Positions 2-11,989 of a stretch of DNA of 17,770 nucleotides are shown here, one piece after another. Location: positions 1-17,770 of the forward strand of contig JBDRLP010000065.1 of the NCBI GenBank assembly GCA_043812975.1. Reading direction: 5' to 3'. The position numbers and the translations under genes were made by a program. The notes below the pieces were generated by a model that was not told the DNA's origin, did not search any database, and saw only the letters and a program-made list of their open reading frames with translations. Origin of the DNA: Candidatus Iainarchaeum sp. (lineage in GTDB: Archaea; Iainarchaeota; Iainarchaeia; Iainarchaeales; Iainarchaeaceae). The first letter of the stretch is position 1. Every line of letters begins with the position of its first letter.

Positions 2-922
2 GATCGCTGGGGTGTTGACAGGCCTGATTTAAGATTTGGTTTGGAATTAGTTGATGTTACAGAAATAATCGGAAATGCAGGCTTCAATGCTTTCGAATCA
101 GTGGTTGCCGGCGGCGGAATAATAAAAGGAATAACTGTTCCTGGAAAAGCCGATTTCACAAGAAAAGAATTAACTGAATTAGAGGATTTTGTGAAAATTT
201 ACAAAGCAAAAGGAATTGCTTCATTAAAAATTGTTAATGGAAAAGTTGAAGGAGGAACTGCAAAGTTTTTCAACCCAAAAGCTCTGGATGAATTGAAAAA
301 CAAAATGAAAGCAAAAGACAATGACATAATGCTTCTTGTTGCTGATGCTCCGAAAATTGTGAATGATTCATTAGGTTATCTGAGAAACCATTTAGCAGAA
401 AAACTTGGTTTGATTAACAAAAAAGAATGGAATTTTTTATGGGTAAAAGATTTCCCGATGTTTGAATGGGATGAAGAAAATGGAAAATTAAAAGCAATGC
501 ATCATCCTTTTACTTCTCCAAAGAAAGAAGATTTTGGATTATTGGAAAAAGAACCTTTAAAAGTCAGAAGTAATTCTTATGATCTTGTCCTTAACGGATT
601 GGAAATTGGTGGCGGTTCTATCAGAATACACCAGTCAGATATTCAGGCTCTGGTTTTCAAAACATTAGGGCTAAGTGAAAAGGATGCCAAGGAAAAATTC
701 GGTTTTATGATGGATGCATTCAAATACGGCGCTCCTCCACATGGAGGAATAGCATTTGGCCTTGACAGGATGATAATGCTTCTGGTCGGAGCAACAAGTA
801 TTAGAGATGTTATTGCTTTCCCTAAGAACAAGGCAGCAATATCACTTATGGATGGTTCTCCAAGCGAAGTTGATGAAAAGTCGTTGAAGGAACTTAGCCT
901 GAAGCTTGACCTGAAAAAATGA
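2..922 (+). CDS. aspS: Aspartyl-tRNA synthetase, bacterial type (GAD insertion domain plus C-terminal extension); 5'-truncated by the window edge
   Basis: The frame is open from nt 2 (DRWGVDRPDLRFGLELVD, matching the bacterial RYGSDKPDLRF motif). It continues through a GAD domain, WVKDFPMFE, HHPFTSP, YDLVLNGLEIGGGSIRIH, motif 3 GAPPHGGIAFGLDR and IRDVIAFPK. Confidence 0.97.
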   Translation, partial: DRWGVDRPDLRFGLELVDVTEIIGNAGFNAFESVVAGGGIIKGITVPGKADFTRKELTELEDFVKIYKAKGIASLKIVNGKVEGGTAKFFNPKALDELKNKMKAKDNDIMLLVADAPKIVNDSLGYLRNHLAEKLGLINKKEWNFLWVKDFPMFEWDEENGKLKAMHHPFTSPKKEDFGLLEKEPLKVRSNSYDLVLNGLEIGGGSIRIHQSDIQALVFKTLGLSEKDAKEKFGFMMDAFKYGAPPHGGIAFGLDRMIMLLVGATSIRDVIAFPKNKAAISLMDGSPSEVDEKSLKELSLKLDLKK

Positions 923-1221
923 TTTTTATGCCTAAACCAAAGGTGGATGAAAAATTATTGCAAAGCGTGGCAAAAAACGCGCGTTTAAACCTCACAAAAG
1001 CAGAGGAAAAAAAGTTTCTTCCGCAGTTAAAAGAAGTACTTGATTTTTTTTCAAAACTTGATAAGCTTGATGTTTCAAAAGAAAAACCTTCATTCCAGCC
1101 TCTGGAAATGAAAAACGTTTTCAGAGAAGACAAAGTAGAAAAATGTCTTTCACAGGAAGAAGCTCTTTCAAATACTTCTCATAAAAAAGACGGTTATTTT
1201 AAGGGGCCGAAGGTGGTTTGA
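919..1221 (+). CDS. gatC: Asp/Glu-tRNA amidotransferase subunit C
   Basis: VAKNARLNL...FREDKV...EEALSN...DGYFKGPKV pattern; ATGA overlap with aspS (alternative start 928); lies directly upstream of gatA. Confidence 0.93.
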   Translation: MIFMPKPKVDEKLLQSVAKNARLNLTKAEEKKFLPQLKEVLDFFSKLDKLDVSKEKPSFQPLEMKNVFREDKVEKCLSQEEALSNTSHKKDGYFKGPKVV

Positions 1222-1312
1222 TGAGAATTATTGTTGCGAGCACAGCGAGCAAGTCCAACCTTGTGTTGGACGCGGTACCGCCGGTCGCAAACGGCGTGAA
1301 GGTGGTTTGATG
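1209..1312. mobile_element. GC-rich palindromic insert (1224-1297) flanked by an exact 15-bp direct repeat GAAGGTGGTTTGATG (1209-1223 and 1298-1312); MITE/REP-like
   Basis: The direct repeat is read directly. Internal hairpin GTCCAAC-cttgt-GTTGGAC (1253-1271), palindrome GCGGTACCGC (1272-1281), outer TTGCGA/TCGCAA (1234-1239/1285-1290). Mobility is inferred. Confidence 0.65.
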
Positions 1313-2725
1313 GTTTTAAGTGCTGTTGAATTTGTAAAGGAAGTTGCTTCAGGAAATATTTCAGTCATAGATCATACTTCTAAAATAATTAGTGAAATCG
1401 AGAAAAAAAATAAAGAGTTCCATCATTTCAATTATTTTGACAAGAAATTTGTGATTGATCAGGCTAACGATCTTGAAAAACAAATCAAGAAAGGAAAAAA
1501 AGGAAAACTTTTAGGAGTGCCAATTAGCGTAAAAGATTGTGTTTGTGTTAAAGGCCTGGAATCAAGAGCTGGTTCAAAAATTCTTTCCGGTTACAAACCT
1601 GTTTTTGATGCAACTGTAATAAAAAAAGCAAAAGAAGAAGGCGCAATTATTCTTGGAAAAACTTCACAGGATGAATTTGGTTTTGGAACTTTCTCAGTTA
1701 ACCATACAGCAGGAGAAATTCCTCTTAACCCTTTTGACAAGGAAAGAAGCTGTGGTGGTTCTTCCGGCGGAGCAGCTGGTTTTGCAGCTTTAACAAAAAA
1801 TACTCAAATTTCAATCGGGGAAAGTACTGGTGGTTCAATCGCATGCCCAGCATCTTTTTGCGGTGTTTCATCAATTACACCAACTTATGGTTTGGTTTCA
1901 AGATACGGGTTAATGGATTATGCAAGTTCTCTTGACAAGATTGGTGCAATTGGAAAAAATTCAAGTGATATTTCATTGCTCTTAGAGGTAATGAGTGGAA
2001 AGGATGAGAAGGACAGTACTTCTCTTGAGGGGATTTCATTTGGAAAAGAAAAAACTGAGGAATTAAAAATCGGTTTGCCAAAAGAACTTTTTGACGCAAT
2101 CGGAGACGAAAAAATAAAAGAAATTGTGAGAAAAAAAATCGATGAAGCAGAATCTTTTGGAGCAAAAATAGAAGAAATTTCTTTACCTTTAAACACAGAA
2201 TATGGTGTTGCTGTTTATTATCTGATTGCAATGGCTGAAGCATCAACAAACCTTGCAAAATACTGCGGTTTACGCTACGGTTTTGAAAAAAAGCTTGAAG
2301 GAAACTTCAATGAATATTTTTCAAGCGTAAGAAGTGAAGCTTTTGGAGAAGAAGCAAAAAGAAGAATTATGATAGGAACTTTTGCAAGAATGTCAGGTTT
2401 CAGAGATGCTTATTATTTGAAGGCCATGAGAGCCAGAACAAAAATGATTAATGAGTATAAGAGCATTTTCAAGAAAGTTGATGTACTTGCTTTGCCGGCA
2501 ATGCCTATTGTAGCTCCAAAATTCAAAGAAATTGAAAAGCTTTCTCCTTTACAGCATTATCAAATGGATCTTTGTACTGTAAGCCCTAACCTTTGCGGTT
2601 TGCCTCATGCAACTGTTAATGCAGGCTCCCTGAATGACATGCCTGTTGGTTTGATGATTATAGGAAACCACCTTGATGATTCAAGGGTTATTTCGGTTGC
2701 TTCACAATTGGAGGAATTAAAATGA
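1310..2725 (+). CDS. gatA: Asp/Glu-tRNA amidotransferase subunit A (amidase signature)
   Basis: GVPISVKD (catalytic Lys), GGSSGG, TGGSI..PASFCG, PTYGLVSRYGL, SSLDKIG, FGEEAKRRIMIGTF. ATG at 1310 follows an SD-like GAAGGTGG; the ORF track starts at TTG 1307. Confidence 0.96.
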   Translation: MVLSAVEFVKEVASGNISVIDHTSKIISEIEKKNKEFHHFNYFDKKFVIDQANDLEKQIKKGKKGKLLGVPISVKDCVCVKGLESRAGSKILSGYKPVFDATVIKKAKEEGAIILGKTSQDEFGFGTFSVNHTAGEIPLNPFDKERSCGGSSGGAAGFAALTKNTQISIGESTGGSIACPASFCGVSSITPTYGLVSRYGLMDYASSLDKIGAIGKNSSDISLLLEVMSGKDEKDSTSLEGISFGKEKTEELKIGLPKELFDAIGDEKIKEIVRKKIDEAESFGAKIEEISLPLNTEYGVAVYYLIAMAEASTNLAKYCGLRYGFEKKLEGNFNEYFSSVRSEAFGEEAKRRIMIGTFARMSGFRDAYYLKAMRARTKMINEYKSIFKKVDVLALPAMPIVAPKFKEIEKLSPLQHYQMDLCTVSPNLCGLPHATVNAGSLNDMPVGLMIIGNHLDDSRVISVASQLEELK

Positions 2726-2839
2726 ACGAAATAGAAGTAGCACAACCGTTGCGTCGGTTGGGTGCGCATACGGCCGCCCAATCTGCGATTGGGCATAAGT
2801 ATTTAATGGGGTTTTTTGCATGAACGAAATAGAAGTTGC
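2722..2839. mobile_element. GC-rich two-hairpin insert (2742-2819) flanked by a 20-bp direct repeat ATGAACGAAATAGAAGT(A/T)GC (2722-2741 and 2820-2839, 19/20 identical)
   Basis: The repeat duplicates the first codons of the downstream gene. Hairpins CAACCG/CGGTTG (2743-2760) and GCCCAATC-tgc-GATTGGGC (2776-2794). Mobility is inferred. Confidence 0.65.
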
Positions 2840-3590
2840 GAAAAAAGCCTGTGTTGAAGCGGGAAAAATCGCAATGAAATATTTTCAGGGTGATTTTACA
2901 ATTACAAAAAAAGGAAGAATTGATTTAGTTACTAATGCTGATGTTGAATGTGAACAAAAAATAAAAAAAGTAATTTTAGCTGAATATCCAACGCATTCTT
3001 TTTTAGGGGAAGAGGAAGGTTCTCAGGGAGAGAGTAAGAATGTATGGATAATAGATCCTATTGATGGTACAACAAACTTTGCTCACGGTATTGATAATTT
3101 CAGCCATTCAATTGCTTTAGTTAGGGATAATGAAATTATATGCGGTGCTGTTTTTGATCCTGTGAACAAAAAACTTTTTACTGCAGTTAAAGGAAAAGGA
3201 GCCGAATTAAACGGGAAAAAAATCAGTGTTTCAAAAACAGAAAAGCTGATTGACTCTGTAGTAATAACAGGTTTTCCTTATGATAATGGTGAAATAAGGG
3301 GAAAAGCTGTTGCATCAATTAGTTCATTGATTGGTAACTGTCAAGGCATAAGGCGTTTCGGTTCAGCTGCTTTGGATTTTTGTTTTGTTGCTCAGGGAAT
3401 TTGTGACGGTTTTTTTGAGTATTATCTTAAATCTTGGGATGTTGCAGCCGGCTTTCTTATTGCAAAAGAAGCAGGAGCAACAATTACTGACATTAATGGA
3501 AATGAAGCAACTATTAATTCAACGCATTTTATTGTAACCAATGGAAAAATCCACAAGGAGTTAAAAAGTCATTTGGAGGCTGTTTCATGA
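2820..3590 (+). CDS. suhB: Inositol monophosphatase family protein (SuhB-like)
   Basis: DLVTNAD..CE, GEE, WIIDPIDGTTNF, RRFGSAALD and WDVAAG motifs. Confidence 0.93.
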   Translation: MNEIEVAKKACVEAGKIAMKYFQGDFTITKKGRIDLVTNADVECEQKIKKVILAEYPTHSFLGEEEGSQGESKNVWIIDPIDGTTNFAHGIDNFSHSIALVRDNEIICGAVFDPVNKKLFTAVKGKGAELNGKKISVSKTEKLIDSVVITGFPYDNGEIRGKAVASISSLIGNCQGIRRFGSAALDFCFVAQGICDGFFEYYLKSWDVAAGFLIAKEAGATITDINGNEATINSTHFIVTNGKIHKELKSHLEAVS

Positions 3591-4120
3591 AAAATAATGT
3601 TGCAATTGTTCGTGGTTGGTATGTTAGACCTGATGGGAAGCTGGATTTTGCTTCGAGGAAAAGGCTTGAATTAGTAAAAGAACTTTTCAGGTCTGGAGAA
3701 TGTTCGAAGATAATTTTGTCAGGGGGGATAAACAGAGAGACGTTTTGGAAAGGAAAAAGAGTAACTGAATCAGCTATGATGCGCGATTATTTGGTTGATG
3801 AGTTGGGTGTTCCTTCTTCATTATTGTTGATTGAAAGCGATTCTCGTGGTTTAACAGAAAGTGCAATAAATACAAAAAAGATGGTTGATGAATTAGACCC
3901 GGAAAAAGTTTTTGTAATAACAAACGATTTTGCCGAGAAGGAAGTAAAAGATGCATTCTTGAGAAATGGATTTAGTGAATCTAAATTAGTAGTGAAAGGA
4001 GCAGATTTGCGTCCAAGAAGGTTAAGAGATGTTCCAGGTTCCTTTTTTTGGACCGCATATGGGAAAATAGTTGTTCCTTTTAAACGGAGCCGATGGGAAA
4101 GGAAACAAAGGATGAAATAA
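3587..4120 (+). CDS. DUF218/YdcF/ElyC-like protein, divergent
   Basis: RLE..ELF..G...IILSGG, TESAMMRDYL...GVP...LIESDSR..TESA and VITNDF resemble DUF218 motifs, but the usual H-x-x-RA is missing. ATGA overlap with the IMPase gene. Confidence 0.75.
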   Translation: MKNNVAIVRGWYVRPDGKLDFASRKRLELVKELFRSGECSKIILSGGINRETFWKGKRVTESAMMRDYLVDELGVPSSLLLIESDSRGLTESAINTKKMVDELDPEKVFVITNDFAEKEVKDAFLRNGFSESKLVVKGADLRPRRLRDVPGSFFWTAYGKIVVPFKRSRWERKQRMK

Positions 4121-4139
4121 TAAAAGGCGGTATTTTTTT

Positions 4140-6041
4140 ATGGTGAAAACAATAATTGGATTAGAAATCCATGTTCAACTCAATACTGATTCAAAATTAT
4201 TTTGTGGGTGCTCAACTTCTGGAAAAGTTGACCGTGGTTCCTGGGTTAAAGATTATCTTGAAAACAAAAAAATCAAGCATAAATTTGTGGAGCATGGAAT
4301 TGCTTTGAAATGTATTGATTCTGCTCAGGAAAGAAATTTGGAAACAAGGCAAATCGCAAAAGCACTGGTTTACATAGCCGATTCAGAACCAGTTTTGTTT
4401 ATTCTTCCCGGAAACAGGAAACTGGATTTAATGAAAGCTCAGAGTGAATTAAATGTAAAGGATTTCAGAATTGCTACTAAAGAAGAAGTTTTCAAGCACA
4501 CGAATTGTGTTGTTGGTTCAGTGCCGCCAACAATTGAAGGAATAAAAAAAGTTGTTGATAAAAAACTCTTGGAAAATAAAGTTATTTCTTTTAATGCAGG
4601 AAACCATTTTACAGGAATAATAATTGAAAAAGATAATTTCCTGAAATCAATTGACAATTATGAGATTTTGGATATTTCAGAGGATGAAACCATAGTTGAA
4701 CAACCAACTCCTCCAGAAAAGAAAAAAATTCCCGTTCTTAATGATGTTCCTAATACAAGAACCTGTGAAATATGTCTTGGCATGCCTGGCTCGAAACCAG
4801 TTTTGAACAAAAAAGCAGTTGATTATGCTTTAATGGTCGCAATGGCTCTGGGGTGTAAAATAAACAAGGAGTTTTTCTTTTCAAGAAAAACTTATTTTTA
4901 TCCTGATCTTGCAAAAGATTATCAGATTACTCAGTATGAAGTTCCTGTTGGTGAAAAAGGTGTTCTGGAAGTTGACGGGAAAAAAATCAGGATTACAAGG
5001 GTTCATTTAGAAGAAGATCCTGCTTCTCTTATTCATGAATCCGGAACAAAGCAAAGCAATTATTCTTTGATTGATTATAACAGGTCAGGAATTCCTTTAG
5101 TAGAAATAGTTACTGAACCTGATTTGGAAAGTCCTGAACAGGCAAGACACTTTTTGGATAAGATGTTAACAATTCTGAATTATTTAGGAGTTTATACTCA
5201 CGGAGAATCTGTTCTCAAGGCGGATTGTAATCTTTCAATTAAGGGTTCTGAAAGAGTTGAAGTGAAAAACGTTACCGGATTTAAAGCTGTTGAGCTGGCT
5301 TTGAAGGCAGAAGAACAAAGGCAGAGGGAAATGATTGAATCCAAGGAAAAAATTGTGCGGGAAACAAGAGGCTTTGATGCAGAAACAAATTCAACTTATT
5401 CAATGAGGAAAAAAGAAACAGAGGAAGATTATGGTTATATTGCAGATCCAGATTTGCCAAAAGTCGAATTAAATGACGAGTGGCTTGAAGAAATAAAAAA
5501 ATCCATGCCCGAATTGGCAGGGGAAAAAGCAAAGCGTTTTGTAAAAAAATTTGGTCTGAAGGAATATGATGCAAAAGTAATCGCTTCTGATAAAACTTTA
5601 TCCGAATTATTTGAAAAAGCAGCTAAAGTAGATCCTCAGTTAGCTGTCAGGTTTATTTCAAGAGAATTAATGGGTATTCTGAATTACAACAAATTAAAAA
5701 TTGAGAATACAAAAGTTAGTGCTGAGGGGGTAATTGGTTTAATTAAATTGGTTAAAGAGGGGAAAGTGAGTGATAAAAATGCAAAAGAATCCCTCATAAA
5801 GTATGTTATTGATGGTATTGAGCCGAAAGAGTTTTTGGAAAAAAATAATTTGCTTATTGATTCTTCTTCCGGCGATGTTGAAAAAATTGTTAAAGAAGTT
5901 GTTGTCGAAAACAAAACCGTTTTTGAAGAGTATAAGGCGGGCAATTCCAAGTCCCTGAATTTCCTCATTGGACAAGTAATGCGAAAAATGAAAGGAAAAG
6001 CCGACGCAAGGCAAGTGCAGAAAATTTTAGAAGAAAAATAA
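4140..6041 (+). CDS. gatB: Asp/Glu-tRNA amidotransferase subunit B with an inserted YbaK/ProX-like aminoacyl-tRNA deacylase domain
   Basis: IGLEIHVQLNT.SKLFCGC, PNT..CEICLGMPG, FSRKTYFYPDL, RVHLEED, DYNRSGIPLVEIVTEPD, RVEVKN, ETRGFD, MRKKE..EDYGY..DPDLP and a Yqey C-terminus (NFLIGQVMRKMKGKAD). At 633 aa it has ~170 extra residues between C24 and P204. Confidence 0.96.
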   Translation: MVKTIIGLEIHVQLNTDSKLFCGCSTSGKVDRGSWVKDYLENKKIKHKFVEHGIALKCIDSAQERNLETRQIAKALVYIADSEPVLFILPGNRKLDLMKAQSELNVKDFRIATKEEVFKHTNCVVGSVPPTIEGIKKVVDKKLLENKVISFNAGNHFTGIIIEKDNFLKSIDNYEILDISEDETIVEQPTPPEKKKIPVLNDVPNTRTCEICLGMPGSKPVLNKKAVDYALMVAMALGCKINKEFFFSRKTYFYPDLAKDYQITQYEVPVGEKGVLEVDGKKIRITRVHLEEDPASLIHESGTKQSNYSLIDYNRSGIPLVEIVTEPDLESPEQARHFLDKMLTILNYLGVYTHGESVLKADCNLSIKGSERVEVKNVTGFKAVELALKAEEQRQREMIESKEKIVRETRGFDAETNSTYSMRKKETEEDYGYIADPDLPKVELNDEWLEEIKKSMPELAGEKAKRFVKKFGLKEYDAKVIASDKTLSELFEKAAKVDPQLAVRFISRELMGILNYNKLKIENTKVSAEGVIGLIKLVKEGKVSDKNAKESLIKYVIDGIEPKEFLEKNNLLIDSSSGDVEKIVKEVVVENKTVFEEYKAGNSKSLNFLIGQVMRKMKGKADARQVQKILEEK

Positions 6042-8018: not shown

Positions 8019-8762
8019 TTAAATTTTTTCTAATAAACTTGTCACTTGAATTTGGTTTATTTTCAGCATGCTGGCCGTCGTTGCGATTGTTCCATCTACT
8101 TTGAACCTTTTCAGTTTTTCCTTGAAGTTTTCAACCAGTTTTTTGTTTAATCCTATTGTTTTTATTTTTAGTCCCTGTTTTATTTCCCACAACTCTTGAT
8201 TGGTGTCCAGTAGCGCATAAAGGTCTGCGATATCTTTTGTACGTTTGAAGGCATCACTCCTGTTTGGAGTTGACTTTAACTTCATTTCCACTAAAATTTT
8301 TGCCGAAGGGATCATTATTTCTATTTCTTCAATTTTTATGAATTCTTTTTCTTTATCAAAAACTTTTTTGAGCAGTGGTTCAGGCATTGAGTGCCTCATT
8401 TTTGTCGAGGTTGCAATGTCGAAGTAAATGTAGGATAAATCATGTATTGGGTGCTTTTTGCTCTCTTCTGTACTCAGTTCTTTTTCTGTTTCACTGTGAA
8501 AGATTTTTACCCATCTGAATGTTGAGTGCCTGTGAAAACCCATGCTTTCCAGAGTATCCTCTAAGCTTTTCAGCTTTATTTTTTGCGGATTAAAGAAAAT
8601 GTCAATGTCCCTCGAACCCATGTGAACAACCTCTTTGTTCTTTAGTGTGTAGTGGACTGCCCATCCACCCATAAGACCAATATTTTTTCTTTCAGTTTCA
8701 TTGAGGTTCCTGAAAAACTTGAGTAAGAGTTCGTCAGATTTTTCAATCATAAGTTTTTCCAC
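8019..8762 (-). CDS. AbiEii-like nucleotidyltransferase (putative type IV toxin)
   Basis: LMGGWAV...GSRDIDIF (Pol-beta NTase motif), MKLKS...R...KDIADL; immediately downstream of an AbiEi-like gene. Confidence 0.75.
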   Translation of the reverse strand: MEKLMIEKSDELLLKFFRNLNETERKNIGLMGGWAVHYTLKNKEVVHMGSRDIDIFFNPQKIKLKSLEDTLESMGFHRHSTFRWVKIFHSETEKELSTEESKKHPIHDLSYIYFDIATSTKMRHSMPEPLLKKVFDKEKEFIKIEEIEIMIPSAKILVEMKLKSTPNRSDAFKRTKDIADLYALLDTNQELWEIKQGLKIKTIGLNKKLVENFKEKLKRFKVDGTIATTASMLKINQIQVTSLLEKI

Positions 8763-8768
8763 TGTAAA

Positions 8769-9479
8769 TCACAACCTGTTATCCAGCCAATTTTCCATAA
8801 TGTTTTTTGCCTGTTCTTCTGCTAAGCCGCCGGAACTGAAGAGGTCACTCAAAAGTATCGGTAAAGGAACAATTGAAAAATTTTTCACTTTTTCAGCCTG
8901 TCTAAAAAAAACTTCCTGCTTTGTTGGAATTAGGAAAAGATTTGCCTGCCCTTTCTCTGCTTTCAGGAATTTTTTAGAAAAAAGATATTTCTTCCATTTT
9001 GGTTCATCCCCCGGTCTGACGTAAATGTGAACCTGGTTTGTTTTTACATATGGTGTGAAAAGTTCACTGCCGGCAAAAATAGTGAATGCATAATCAAATC
9101 CTGCATTGCCAACTGTTTTCAATGTACTGGCGAAATCCAGCGGGGAATAATATTCAATTTTTTCAAGGCTGTTGAATGGTCTTGTAAAGGAAATAAGTTT
9201 CACCAAATCACTTGCCTTTGAAACAGTATACTCATTGGTTCTGGAATCTTTTAATAGAAAGCCACTTTTCTCTAGTTCCTTTACAAAAGAAAAGGTCGGA
9301 CCATAGGTAAGTGTCAGGTTTAAAATCTGAAAAGGTTTTTTTTGGCTGTAAATCCCTGTGTCTTTTCCACCAAGCATTTTTTCTGTTCCTTTCCTTAATT
9401 CAAGAATGTTCCACTTTTTTTCCTTGTTCTTTAGCATCCATAGGATTGAAATCAGGCGCTTATCAGTGAGCTTCAACAT
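8769..9479 (-). CDS. AbiEi-like antitoxin / winged-helix regulator
   Basis: N-terminal wHTH-like segment (TYGPTFSFVKELEKSGFL); C-terminal YAFT..AGSEL..PY....VHIYV and VP.PILLSDL...GG...EQA pattern; 6-bp gap to the NTase gene. Confidence 0.7.
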   Translation of the reverse strand: MLKLTDKRLISILWMLKNKEKKWNILELRKGTEKMLGGKDTGIYSQKKPFQILNLTLTYGPTFSFVKELEKSGFLLKDSRTNEYTVSKASDLVKLISFTRPFNSLEKIEYYSPLDFASTLKTVGNAGFDYAFTIFAGSELFTPYVKTNQVHIYVRPGDEPKWKKYLFSKKFLKAEKGQANLFLIPTKQEVFFRQAEKVKNFSIVPLPILLSDLFSSGGLAEEQAKNIMENWLDNRL

Positions 9480-10681: not shown

Positions 10682-10712
10682 GTACTTAGTATTGAATTCT
10701 AAAAAAATTGAG

Positions 10713-10787
10713 TGGACACGGGCGGATTTGAACCGCCGATCTTTCCGTTATCAGCGGAATGCTCTAGCCAGACTGAGCCACGCGTCC
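10713..10787 (-). tRNA. tRNA-Ile (anticodon GAT), no intron, CCA not encoded
   Basis: The reverse complement folds as GGACGCG/CGTGTCC acceptor, GCTC/GAGC D-stem, TTCCG-CTGATAA-CGGAA anticodon arm, GGCGG-TTCAAAT-CCGCC T-arm, discriminator A. Confidence 0.97.
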
Positions 10788-11693: not shown

Positions 11694-11858
11694 CACTAGC
11701 CCCGTCGTGTAGCGACCTTTTCTTTAGGAAAGAACCTTGCAGAATTAGAAATTCTGCGAGGCCTCCCAGAACGAGAGTTCTGGAAGGAAGCTCGACTAAA
11801 AGAAAAGTGGTTTAAGGGCTTAAATCATAGTTAATTACACTAGCCCCGTCGTCTAGTG
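11694..11858 (+). repeat. Duplicated 5' end of tRNA-Gln (11694-11714 vs 11838-11858, 19/21 identical) separated by a multi-hairpin insert
   Basis: CACTAGCCCCGTCGT is exact at 11694-11708 and 11838-11852. The insert contains CTTTTCTTTAG...CTAAAAGAAAAG, CTTGCAGAATT-aga-AATTCTGCGAG and CCAGAAC-gaga-GTTCTGG. Confidence 0.8.
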
Positions 11859-11989
11859 GCCAAGGATACAGGCCTTTGGAGTAGCCTTTTTCTTTCTTGA
11901 GAAGAAAGAAAAACCCTAGGGAAAAAGAAAGAACTAGGGTCTGGGTACGAAGCCAGCCTGGGACCAGAGTTCGAATCTCTGCGGGGCTA
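11842..11989 (+). tRNA. tRNA-Gln (anticodon TTG) with a 75-nt intron at the canonical 37/38 position (11880-11954)
   Basis: AGCCCCG/CGGGGCT acceptor (A1-U72, archaeal Gln hallmark); CAGGC-CTTTGG|intron|A-GCCTG; T-arm CAGAG-TTCGAAT-CTCTG; bulge-helix-bulge with GGA bulge, CTTT/GAAG helix and CCA bulge. Confidence 0.95.

Follow-up and report, generated by a model that had tools for sequence, protein, structure and literature searches.

Analysis of a 17,770-nucleotide stretch of DNA from Candidatus Iainarchaeum sp. (contig JBDRLP010000065.1, hereafter the window) revealed a gatB gene whose product, the subunit of the tRNA-dependent amidotransferase GatCAB that converts Asp-tRNA(Asn) to Asn-tRNA(Asn), carries a complete tRNA-editing-type domain inserted in a surface loop of its cradle. 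The open reading frame (ORF) lies at positions 4140..6041 on the forward strand and translates to 633 amino acids with no internal stop, and the frame is open across both junctions of the insert. The inserted domain appears closest to ProXp-x/ProX by sequence and fold and not to YbaK proper; enzyme and domain are both known, and their combination is undescribed. Our preferred interpretation, that the domain may act in cis as a deacylase on GatCAB-bound tRNA, has about an even chance of being correct, judged from sequence and predicted structure.

At the sequence level the product of this ORF is confirmed as a full GatB by family score, domain content, invariant residues and linkage to gatC and gatA. 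The GatB equivalog NF004012 gave 540.4 bits (cut-off 338) and TIGR00133 gave 483 bits (cut-off 314.8), both matching in two stretches flanking the insert. Among the Pfam domains, GatB_N (309.5 bits) was likewise found in two stretches, the best of them at amino acids 202-450 (profile positions 27-277), together with tRNA_edit and with GatB_Yqey at amino acids 490-633 (E 1.2e-33); the helical and YqeY tail domains occupy 5490..6041. Foldseek matched the model to the GatB chains 3ip4_B, 3al0_B and 3h0l_B with target-normalised template modelling scores of 0.75-0.88. In the alignment with Thermotoga maritima GatB (3al0_B), query residues 3-25 correspond to 4-26 and residues 203-631 to 33-476, so that approximately 177 query residues replace about six.

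The insertion follows the N-terminal strand IGLEIH (E9, H11; a strand is predicted at amino acids 4-13 in the AlphaFold model of the whole GatB) and the first cysteine pair C22/C24 (nucleotides 4203-4211), which are encoded at 4140..4220. The remaining cradle resumes at 4749..5489 from PNTRTC209EIC212, with the second cysteine pair at nucleotides 4764-4775. Ordinary close relatives read KLFCGCSTKGEAPNTSTCEICLG at the insertion site, with about 10 residues between the cysteine pairs, and approximately 175 residues separate CGC from PNTRTCEIC in this GatB. Among 75 aligned GatBs (13 insertion forms, query included, and 62 ordinary GatBs), E9, H11, C22, C24, C209, C212 and 43 other columns are invariant; G7, K19 and N205 are among the invariant positions. 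A preliminary description of the window had placed FCGC and PNTRTCEIC at these positions and the insert between them, and the ORF translation, the 3al0_B alignment, the ordinary relatives and the 75-GatB alignment all agree with it. Of its term zinc-binding loop, the four invariant cysteines are shown here; they are presumed zinc ligands, as in the Aquifex GatCAB structure, and a literature search for zinc in the GatB cradle domain gave nothing.

The whole insertion (amino acids 28-201, 4221..4742) has no counterpart in ordinary GatB and consists mainly of a folded, deacylase-type ProX-like domain (amino acids 34-181, 4239..4682), which is followed by an acidic, proline-rich linker to the cradle (amino acids 182-203, 4683..4748). 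An AlphaFold2 model of the whole protein built on the 75-sequence alignment gave a mean predicted local distance difference test score (pLDDT) of 89.1 and a predicted template modelling score (pTM) of 0.73, with the insert predicted confidently. Amino acids 185-205 (pLDDT 55-70, residues 198-201 below 50) are the sole low-confidence stretch of the insert region and correspond to the Pro/Glu-rich linker noticed earlier. A candidate origin of this linker as a relic of a duplicated first strand, by which the N-terminal and insertion forms would be connected, was dropped; the lengths are alike (23 versus 30 residues) and significant similarity was not demonstrated.

In hidden Markov model searches, the insert alone matched Pfam tRNA_edit (PF04073) with an E value of 2.2e-20 and 73.4 bits, and the same family scored 70.5 bits within the whole protein (cut-off 25.5 in both cases). 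The YbaK equivalog TIGR00011 reached only 43.3 bits with the insert and 39.9 bits with the whole protein against a cut-off of 153.25. The earlier assignment of the insert to the INS/YbaK superfamily is therefore sustained by family and fold, and its narrower identity as a YbaK is not. Modelled alone, the domain has a pLDDT of 96.7, and its best structural match is Thermus thermophilus ProX (2cx5_A; Z 22.6, root mean square deviation 1.4 Å over 146 of 148 residues, 27% identity), the structure used for ProXp-x in passages of a 2024 review (PMC11295145). APE2540 (1WDV, Z 21.1), YbaK (20.7), Escherichia coli ProX (20.0), the INS domain of ProRS (18.1) and ProXp-ala (1vjf, 16.2) follow. Overall, ProX, YbaK, ProRS INS and ProXp-ala structures span Z 15-22.6, the ProXp-ala solution structure 9bu5 scores 11.3, and unrelated rows fall to 2.4. 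This ranking has to be read with care, since YbaK, 1WDV and E. coli ProX lie only 1.5 to 2.6 Z units below the 2CX5 match, the uncharacterised 3op6 outscores the ProXp-x/ProX structures in sequence searches, and the domain tree contained no reference ProXp-x sequence. A look-up of the insert in the ESM Atlas returned only two bacterial YbaK/EbsC clusters by structure and none by features.

The insert has the superfamily signature at which the preliminary description had pointed. K74 (in QIAKAL, codon at nucleotides 4359-4361), G126-S-V-P-P130 (nucleotides 4515-4529; the GxxxP loop), D140 and F151-N-A-G154 are all present in the insert. In all 24 GatB-fused domains K74, G126, V128, P129, P130, H52 and F151-G154 are invariant, and D140 occurs in 96%; this invariance holds across copies that are only 47-84% identical. 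An equivalent of K74 occurs in 99% of 130 other tRNA_edit domains, and GatB-fused domains have conserved residues specific to their clade. According to passages of a study of ProXp-ala (PMC10164551), the equivalent K45 contacts A76 of the tRNA, is nearly universal in the superfamily and has the accommodation of A76 as its primary role; the term GxxxP is absent from that study. The ratio of nonsynonymous to synonymous substitution (dN/dS) between the gene and its orthologue in G003, a genome of the same genus, is 0.07 in the domain, 0.078 in the cradle and 0.071 across the helical and tail domains, and the linker is the least constrained part at 0.17; these values come from a single pair with dS of 0.6-2.1, near saturation. 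The low pairwise values indicate that the domain is under purifying selection equal to that on the rest of GatB.

The split GatB_N and YbaK-type architecture that the preliminary description had picked out was recovered many times. A search restricted to the insert returned 15 clusters including the query, all composed of GatB_N, tRNA_edit and GatB_Yqey and with insert identities of 47-84%. When 1.84 billion representatives were searched exhaustively with HMMER, P0016, P0017, P0027 and a fragment, P0018, were gained, and a search with the GatB body added the carriers P0194, P0231, P0238, P0253, P0266 and P0274, bringing the total to 24 distinct full or partial homologues with a GatB-fused domain. 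A pattern scan of species-representative genomes found 11 loci, all with the order gatC-gatA-(inositol monophosphatase (IMPase))-gatB and often with aspS upstream; their titles include Candidatus Iainarchaeum (three), Forterrea, Woesearchaeota and a single bin with the label Chloroflexi. Within the phylum of the window, a profile scan found a GatB-linked copy in 15 of 215 genomes (E <= 4e-55), in the same gene order and in seven families. Two further candidates were rejected. G173, a possible split form from the phylum scan (E 9e-30), is an unlinked free-standing protein of 157 amino acids with 31% identity, and the 685-amino-acid IMPase-GatB fusion of G027 is a run of N read through as X.

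These results confirm that the GatB-tRNA_edit architecture is real and not an artefact. An assembly chimera or gene-calling artefact, which would be conceivable in a contig of a metagenome-assembled genome, is excluded for practical purposes by the open frame at both junctions and by the recurrence of the architecture in 24 distinct sequences of 47-84% identity from several sources and assemblies. Read support at the junctions, which was examined with Logan contigs, is partial. A 194-nucleotide contig of a public run (X1) covers 4077-4270 with zero differences and spans the 5' junction, whereas for the 3' junction none of the listed read pieces could be shown to span it, most pieces coming from the conserved gatB of other organisms. 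Run X1 may be the window's own source, so that bridging of the 5' junction is not independent support.

Analysis of the 24 carriers revealed two modes of attachment to the full GatB: 15 are loop insertions and nine are N-terminal fusions directly before the IGLExH strand. P0238 was counted among the loop insertions; it is N-terminally truncated and was wrongly labelled in the GatB-body tree. In one Iainarchaeum bin (L035, 2505-4251, identical with P0018) an N-terminal-fusion gatB is split into a domain ORF of 181 amino acids and an overlapping GatB ORF of 417 amino acids, by either a frameshift or a sequencing error. When 155 tRNA_edit domains were placed in a tree, the copies fused to GatB came together in a single group with a support of 81 in the Shimodaira-Hasegawa approximate likelihood ratio test (SH-aLRT). 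The sister of this group (94) is a clade (98) whose proteins, about 305-330 amino acids long, lack the cradle and have the domain joined to the GatB helical and YqeY tail domains only. In P0019, for example, residues 147-308 align to GatB profile positions 300-479. This protein has 12 relatives, and the members of the family are P0019, P0034, P0135, P0141 and P0279-P0288, with Thermoplasmata and Hydrothermarchaeaceae among the sources. A metagenome scan, with a pattern lying in the YqeY tail, found only one full-length member (L084, on a 2.1-kb contig), the other matches being ordinary GatB tails. The genome's own free-standing ProX-like protein falls in a neighbouring clade of the domain tree, apart from the GatB-fused group; in a smaller domain tree of 37 rows the insertion forms cluster together (93) except P0017. 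The GatB tail binds the D-loop of tRNA, according to passages of a structural study of archaeal GatCAB (PMC2811023), and the joining of the domain to this tail alone suggests that the domain works on tRNAs that GatB selects. The cradle-less family could be a deacylase targeted to tRNA(Asn/Gln).

Other tRNA_edit architectures were also seen among the nearest representatives of the domain. In P0078, P0083, P0053/P0061 and P0026/P0063 they comprise fusions with RuvX, D-Ala-D-Ala carboxypeptidase (Peptidase_S11) and SnoaL-like domains and three tandem tRNA_edit domains.

The distribution of the domain is patchy. Among 40 relatives of the same genus, family or order, only G003 and G037 carry it. 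In the same-genus genomes G002 and G004 the same operon contains a GatB of the ordinary kind, with a frame of 469 and 462 amino acids and a body 69% and 75% identical to that of the window, respectively. The domain is present in 13 of the best 120 GatB-body matches. Body identity is 85% both in P0002, which has the domain, and in P0167, which has not. In the GatB-body tree of 130 rows the label for absence of the domain has to change 17 times, branches supported at 95 or higher forcing no fewer than 13 of these changes, and several carriers are sister to ordinary GatBs at support 97-100. The module is thus accessory, GatBs with and without it alternating among close relatives, and its presence on the GatB tree is shown to be labile; loss and lateral replacement are both possible. 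For most carriers the identities of domain and body to the query run parallel (84/85, 76/83, 65/60 and 58/55%), which fits long co-residence with repeated loss. P0009 and P0010 are exceptions, with domain and body identities of 53/37 and 52/38%. A clade of P0005 and P0009 is rejected by the GatB-body data (p-AU 7e-7), while the domain data leave P0009+P0010 unrejected (p 0.47) and give a borderline result for P0009+P0010+P0027 (p 0.0505), the groups in these approximately unbiased (AU) tests having been named after the tree of the other data set was seen. Sliding identity of P0009 and P0010 falls gradually with no clear breakpoint, and recombination of the 5' part in these two sequences is suggestive only. 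A search for direct repeats at the insertion junctions that could serve excision gave only A-rich chance matches inside the insert.

The gene content would place this GatB in an indirect charging pathway. The assembly is 1.24 Mb in 68 contigs and is 94.5% complete; neither AsnRS nor GlnRS was found in it above cut-off, and it has a single bacterial-type AspRS with no other class IIb Asp/Asn enzyme detected. From this gene content, Asn-tRNA(Asn) would have to come from AspRS and GatCAB. The genome's tRNA-Asn is present, with G1-C72 and G73, and its ProRS is of the archaeal type without an INS domain. Contig C32 carries, at 21756-24132 (L017), a gatD gene (471 bits) preceded by a paralogue of type I asparaginase, and GatE was not found in the assembly. 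The absence of GatE is a probable gap, since a GatE-like gene occurs in G003, the nearest carrier, and completeness of the 68-contig assembly is 94.5%; it is not taken as a sign that GatD is the partner of this GatB. A free-standing tRNA_edit gene is also present in all five carriers checked (the window's own genome, G003, G037, G137 and G169). In the window's genome this copy is only 32% identical to the inserted domain. The retention of the free-standing gene indicates that the GatB copy is additional and not the generic ProX of the cell.

The gene order at the locus is aspS-gatC-gatA-IMPase family-DUF218-gatB, all in the same direction, and the co-occurrence of gatB with an AspRS gene in an archaeal operon, as first described, is borne out. 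The 3' half of the bacterial-type aspS lies at 2..922 (+) and covers profile positions 285-588 of 590. The 5' half (positions 3-328) ends contig C2 at about 17754-18734, and these two contig ends indicate that contig C2 and the window are neighbours. Downstream of aspS are gatC (919..1221, +; PF02686, E 1.6e-17), gatA (1307..2725, +; Amidase, E 1.3e-106), the gene of the IMPase family (2820..3590, +) and a DUF218 gene (3587..4120, +; PF02698, E 2.1e-13). Without the DUF218 gene, this order is common to relatives both with and without the domain. The IMPase-family gene scores below all NCBIfam equivalog cut-offs and keeps its position in G003, G004, G009, G037, L029 and L033; it occurs between gatA and gatB across the order (also in L020, L022, L024 and L035), sometimes in two copies. 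The DUF218 gene overlaps the stop of the IMPase-family gene by 4 nucleotides and was seen only in the window's own genome, none being present in the compared loci L019-L024. In L033, the bin labelled Chloroflexi, an N-terminal-fusion gatB stands in the order aspS-gatC-gatA-IMPase-IMPase-gatB with a GC content of 0.38 and 51-68% identity to the window proteins, and this locus looks like a mis-binned DPANN contig. The window also encodes an intron-containing tRNA-Gln(UUG) at 11842-11989 (+) with A1-U72 and A73 (Rfam 43.3 bits with the full model and a long insertion; aragorn -i agrees) and a tRNA-Ile(GAU) at 10712-10787 (-). An adjacent gene pair at 8019-9479 (-), with a match to AbiEi_2 (E 4e-5) and a weak one to the nucleotidyltransferase family NTP_transf_5 (E 7e-4, below cut-off), resembles a type IV toxin-antitoxin pair.

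The arrangement of this protein suggests how a cis-acting deacylase might operate. The host is the GatB of a GatCAB of a DPANN archaeon (its relatives are labelled Iainarchaeum, Diapherotrites or Forterrea), and the complete ProXp-x-like domain sits in the cradle between the two cysteine pairs coming after the catalytic first strand. A tether of nine residues anchors it on one side and a flexible tether of about 22 residues on the other. With the tRNA held on GatB by the helical and tail domains, its 3' aminoacyl end could alternate between two pockets, that of the kinase/transamidase and that of the tethered deacylase, by analogy with a synthetase-bound tRNA whose CCA end moves from the synthetic to the editing site. 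In this way the domain would hydrolyse aminoacyl-tRNA that ought to be kept from leaving the complex. Our preferred substrate candidate is a non-Asp aminoacyl-tRNA(Asn/Asp) supplied by an AspRS without editing; next in preference would come Asn-tRNA(Asp) formed by mis-amidation and then unamidated Asp-tRNA(Asn) upon stalled amidation. Asn-tRNA(Asp) is included among the candidates because archaeal GatCAB lacks the 3-10 turn and ignores the first base pair, passages of the structural study calling the missing proofreading step unexplained (PMC2811023). The preliminary description had considered both editing and a purely tRNA-binding role; the intact signature, the purifying selection and the recurrent fusion to GatB parts together favour a working deacylase on GatB-bound tRNA.

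Fusions of the same domain family to AspRS were also found. Among the 150 nearest representatives, eight are AspRS proteins that bear tRNA_edit at their C-terminus (P0028, P0035, P0070 and P0076, and the fragments P0041, P0047, P0054 and P0072). P0028 is a nondiscriminating (ND)-type AspRS (508 bits), P0070 is of the bacterial type with GAD (815 bits), and the record of P0035, from a 'Candidatus' organism, is named nondiscriminating AspRS. These fusions suggest a recurring need for editing around Asp/Asn charging.

Several observations weigh against a cis-acting deacylase. The domain can be dispensed with: it is missing from P0166, whose body is the closest of all (89% identical), and from the same-genus G002 and G004. 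In the domain tree, the domains fused to AspRS fall in the other half, outside the GatB-fused clade, which points to parallel, independent recruitments, and both the domain and the body trees are quick IQ-TREE trees with SH-aLRT support only. The pTM of 0.73 leaves the arrangement of the domains uncertain, and hydrolysis of the pathway's own intermediate or product would be futile, which would call for a substrate other than these. Finally, ProXp-x acts in trans on 2-aminobutyryl (Abu)-tRNAs of several synthetases, according to passages of the 2024 review, which fits a generic factor (PMC11295145). A generic ProX/ProXp-x trans-editing factor, clearing Ala- or Abu-tRNA from ProRS and other synthetases and merely tethered to GatB, would agree with the best relatives of the domain (2cx5_A, Z 22.6; 1wdv, Z 21.1), with the archaeal-type ProRS without INS and with the patchy, evidently dispensable presence. 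We consider it unlikely, as all five carriers checked keep a separate free-standing tRNA_edit gene, the GatB-fused copies group apart from the clade of the genome's own free-standing copy, and three ways of joining to GatB (loop, N-terminal and tail-only) are hard to explain without a tie to the tRNA of GatB.

Much the same small weight is given to a module that binds the CCA end and does not hydrolyse, either holding the aminoacyl end and handing it over from AspRS to the GatB pocket or protecting the ester bond. The lysine and the GxxxP loop serve 3'-end binding as much as catalysis, K45 of ProXp-ala accommodating A76 in the passages cited (PMC10164551), and a site beside the catalytic first strand fits both roles. 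However, other signature residues of the superfamily are kept too (H52, D140 in 96% and FNAG), every characterised member named in passages of the review is a hydrolase (PMC11295145), and sister species with ordinary GatBs get by without one. That the insertion is a passenger without function or in decay, for instance neutral domain accretion heading for loss, appears very improbable. Such a passenger would account for the at least 13 changes between presence and absence forced at support of at least 95 and for the one split or frameshifted copy (L035/P0018), but the dN/dS of 0.07 on par with cradle and tail, active-site residues invariant across copies of 47-84% identity and a confidently predicted fold (pLDDT 96.7) all speak against it. 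A deacylase acting in cis on GatB-bound tRNA is the interpretation that we prefer.

Extending this interpretation, we tentatively propose an Asn-transamidosome with its own hydrolytic proofreading site that would clear errors of the indirect pathway, the cradle-less sisters then being free-standing deacylases for tRNA(Asn/Gln); on the sequences at hand this is a possibility of rather less than even weight. Transfer RNA-dependent amidotransferases are considered to depend on transamidosome channelling and on discrimination by elongation factor. To our knowledge, editing is known for synthetases and free-standing factors and not for these amidotransferases. A GatB with an intact, selected deacylase-type domain next to its catalytic strand points to an undescribed proofreading step in indirect tRNA charging and makes hydrolytic quality control of the indirect Asn/Gln route directly testable; if true, this site and the sister deacylases together would be the first editing activities ascribed to tRNA-dependent amidation. 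Natural controls are available in sister species that differ in having the domain and are 75-89% identical over the remainder of GatB, in the two modes of attachment and in the cradle-less relative. The AspRS-tRNA_edit fusions hint at an unrecognised fidelity problem in Asp/Asn charging. New in this study are the form fused at the N-terminus, the sister family without a cradle, the lability across the GatB tree, the argument from the extra copy and the selection estimate.

A full-text literature search outside subscription-only papers found no description of a fusion of GatB, AspRS or YqeY with this domain, and the earlier statement that no GatB-YbaK architecture had been described is upheld within that scope. 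Comparison with known systems gave the following picture. ProXp-x/ProX (TTHA1699, 2CX5/2Z0K; APE2540, 1WDV) has the same fold over the whole domain and the same lysine and GxxxP loop; it is a free-standing single-domain protein, whereas the present copy is embedded in GatB and belongs to a separate clade. Apart from INS, members of the superfamily have one domain each according to passages of the 2024 review, and the fusions reported here extend that catalogue of INS-superfamily architectures (PMC11295145). The same passages state that ProXp-x deacylates Abu-tRNA with A73 preferred (PMC11295145); with G73 in the genome's own tRNA-Asn and A73 in its tRNA-Gln, nothing is decided on a preference of this type. 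YbaK, the Cys-tRNA(Pro) deacylase (1DBU/1DBX), shares superfamily and fold (Z 20.7), and its equivalog cut-off is missed here. The INS domain of bacterial ProRS is likewise a deacylase of this superfamily set into an enzyme that handles tRNA, within its catalytic domain, and edits there in cis; the structural match is to residues 248-386 of Enterococcus faecalis ProRS (Z 18.1). Its host, however, is a class II synthetase and not an amidotransferase, and here the equivalog for ProRS reaches no more than 43 bits. The GatB paralogue in archaeal GatDE, GatE, shows that a cradle of the GatB family likewise tolerates large insertions. Its profile has positions 34-81 between the points flanking this loop and a block at 269-423 without counterpart in this GatB. 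The large insertion of GatE is an AspRS-like (GAD-type) domain at another site and not a deacylase, and we know of no tRNA_edit domain in GatE. In ProXp-ala-ProRS of lower eukaryotes and in plant ProXp-ala with its C-terminal domain, the partner is the edited synthetase or a tRNA-binding extension, in contrast to an amidotransferase subunit here; passages of the review name no other fusions for the free-standing families of the INS superfamily (PMC11295145). The closest precedent in spirit is SepRS joined to a ThrRS-type editing domain in some bacteria, which belongs to another indirect route, that of Sep-tRNA(Cys). Its authors model the CCA end as moving between the two sites and, in passages of the paper, say that the edited amino acid is unknown (PMC8762117). 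This fusion differs from the one described here in its tRNA-Thr-ED fold, in its host enzyme and in occurring as an N-terminal fusion only.

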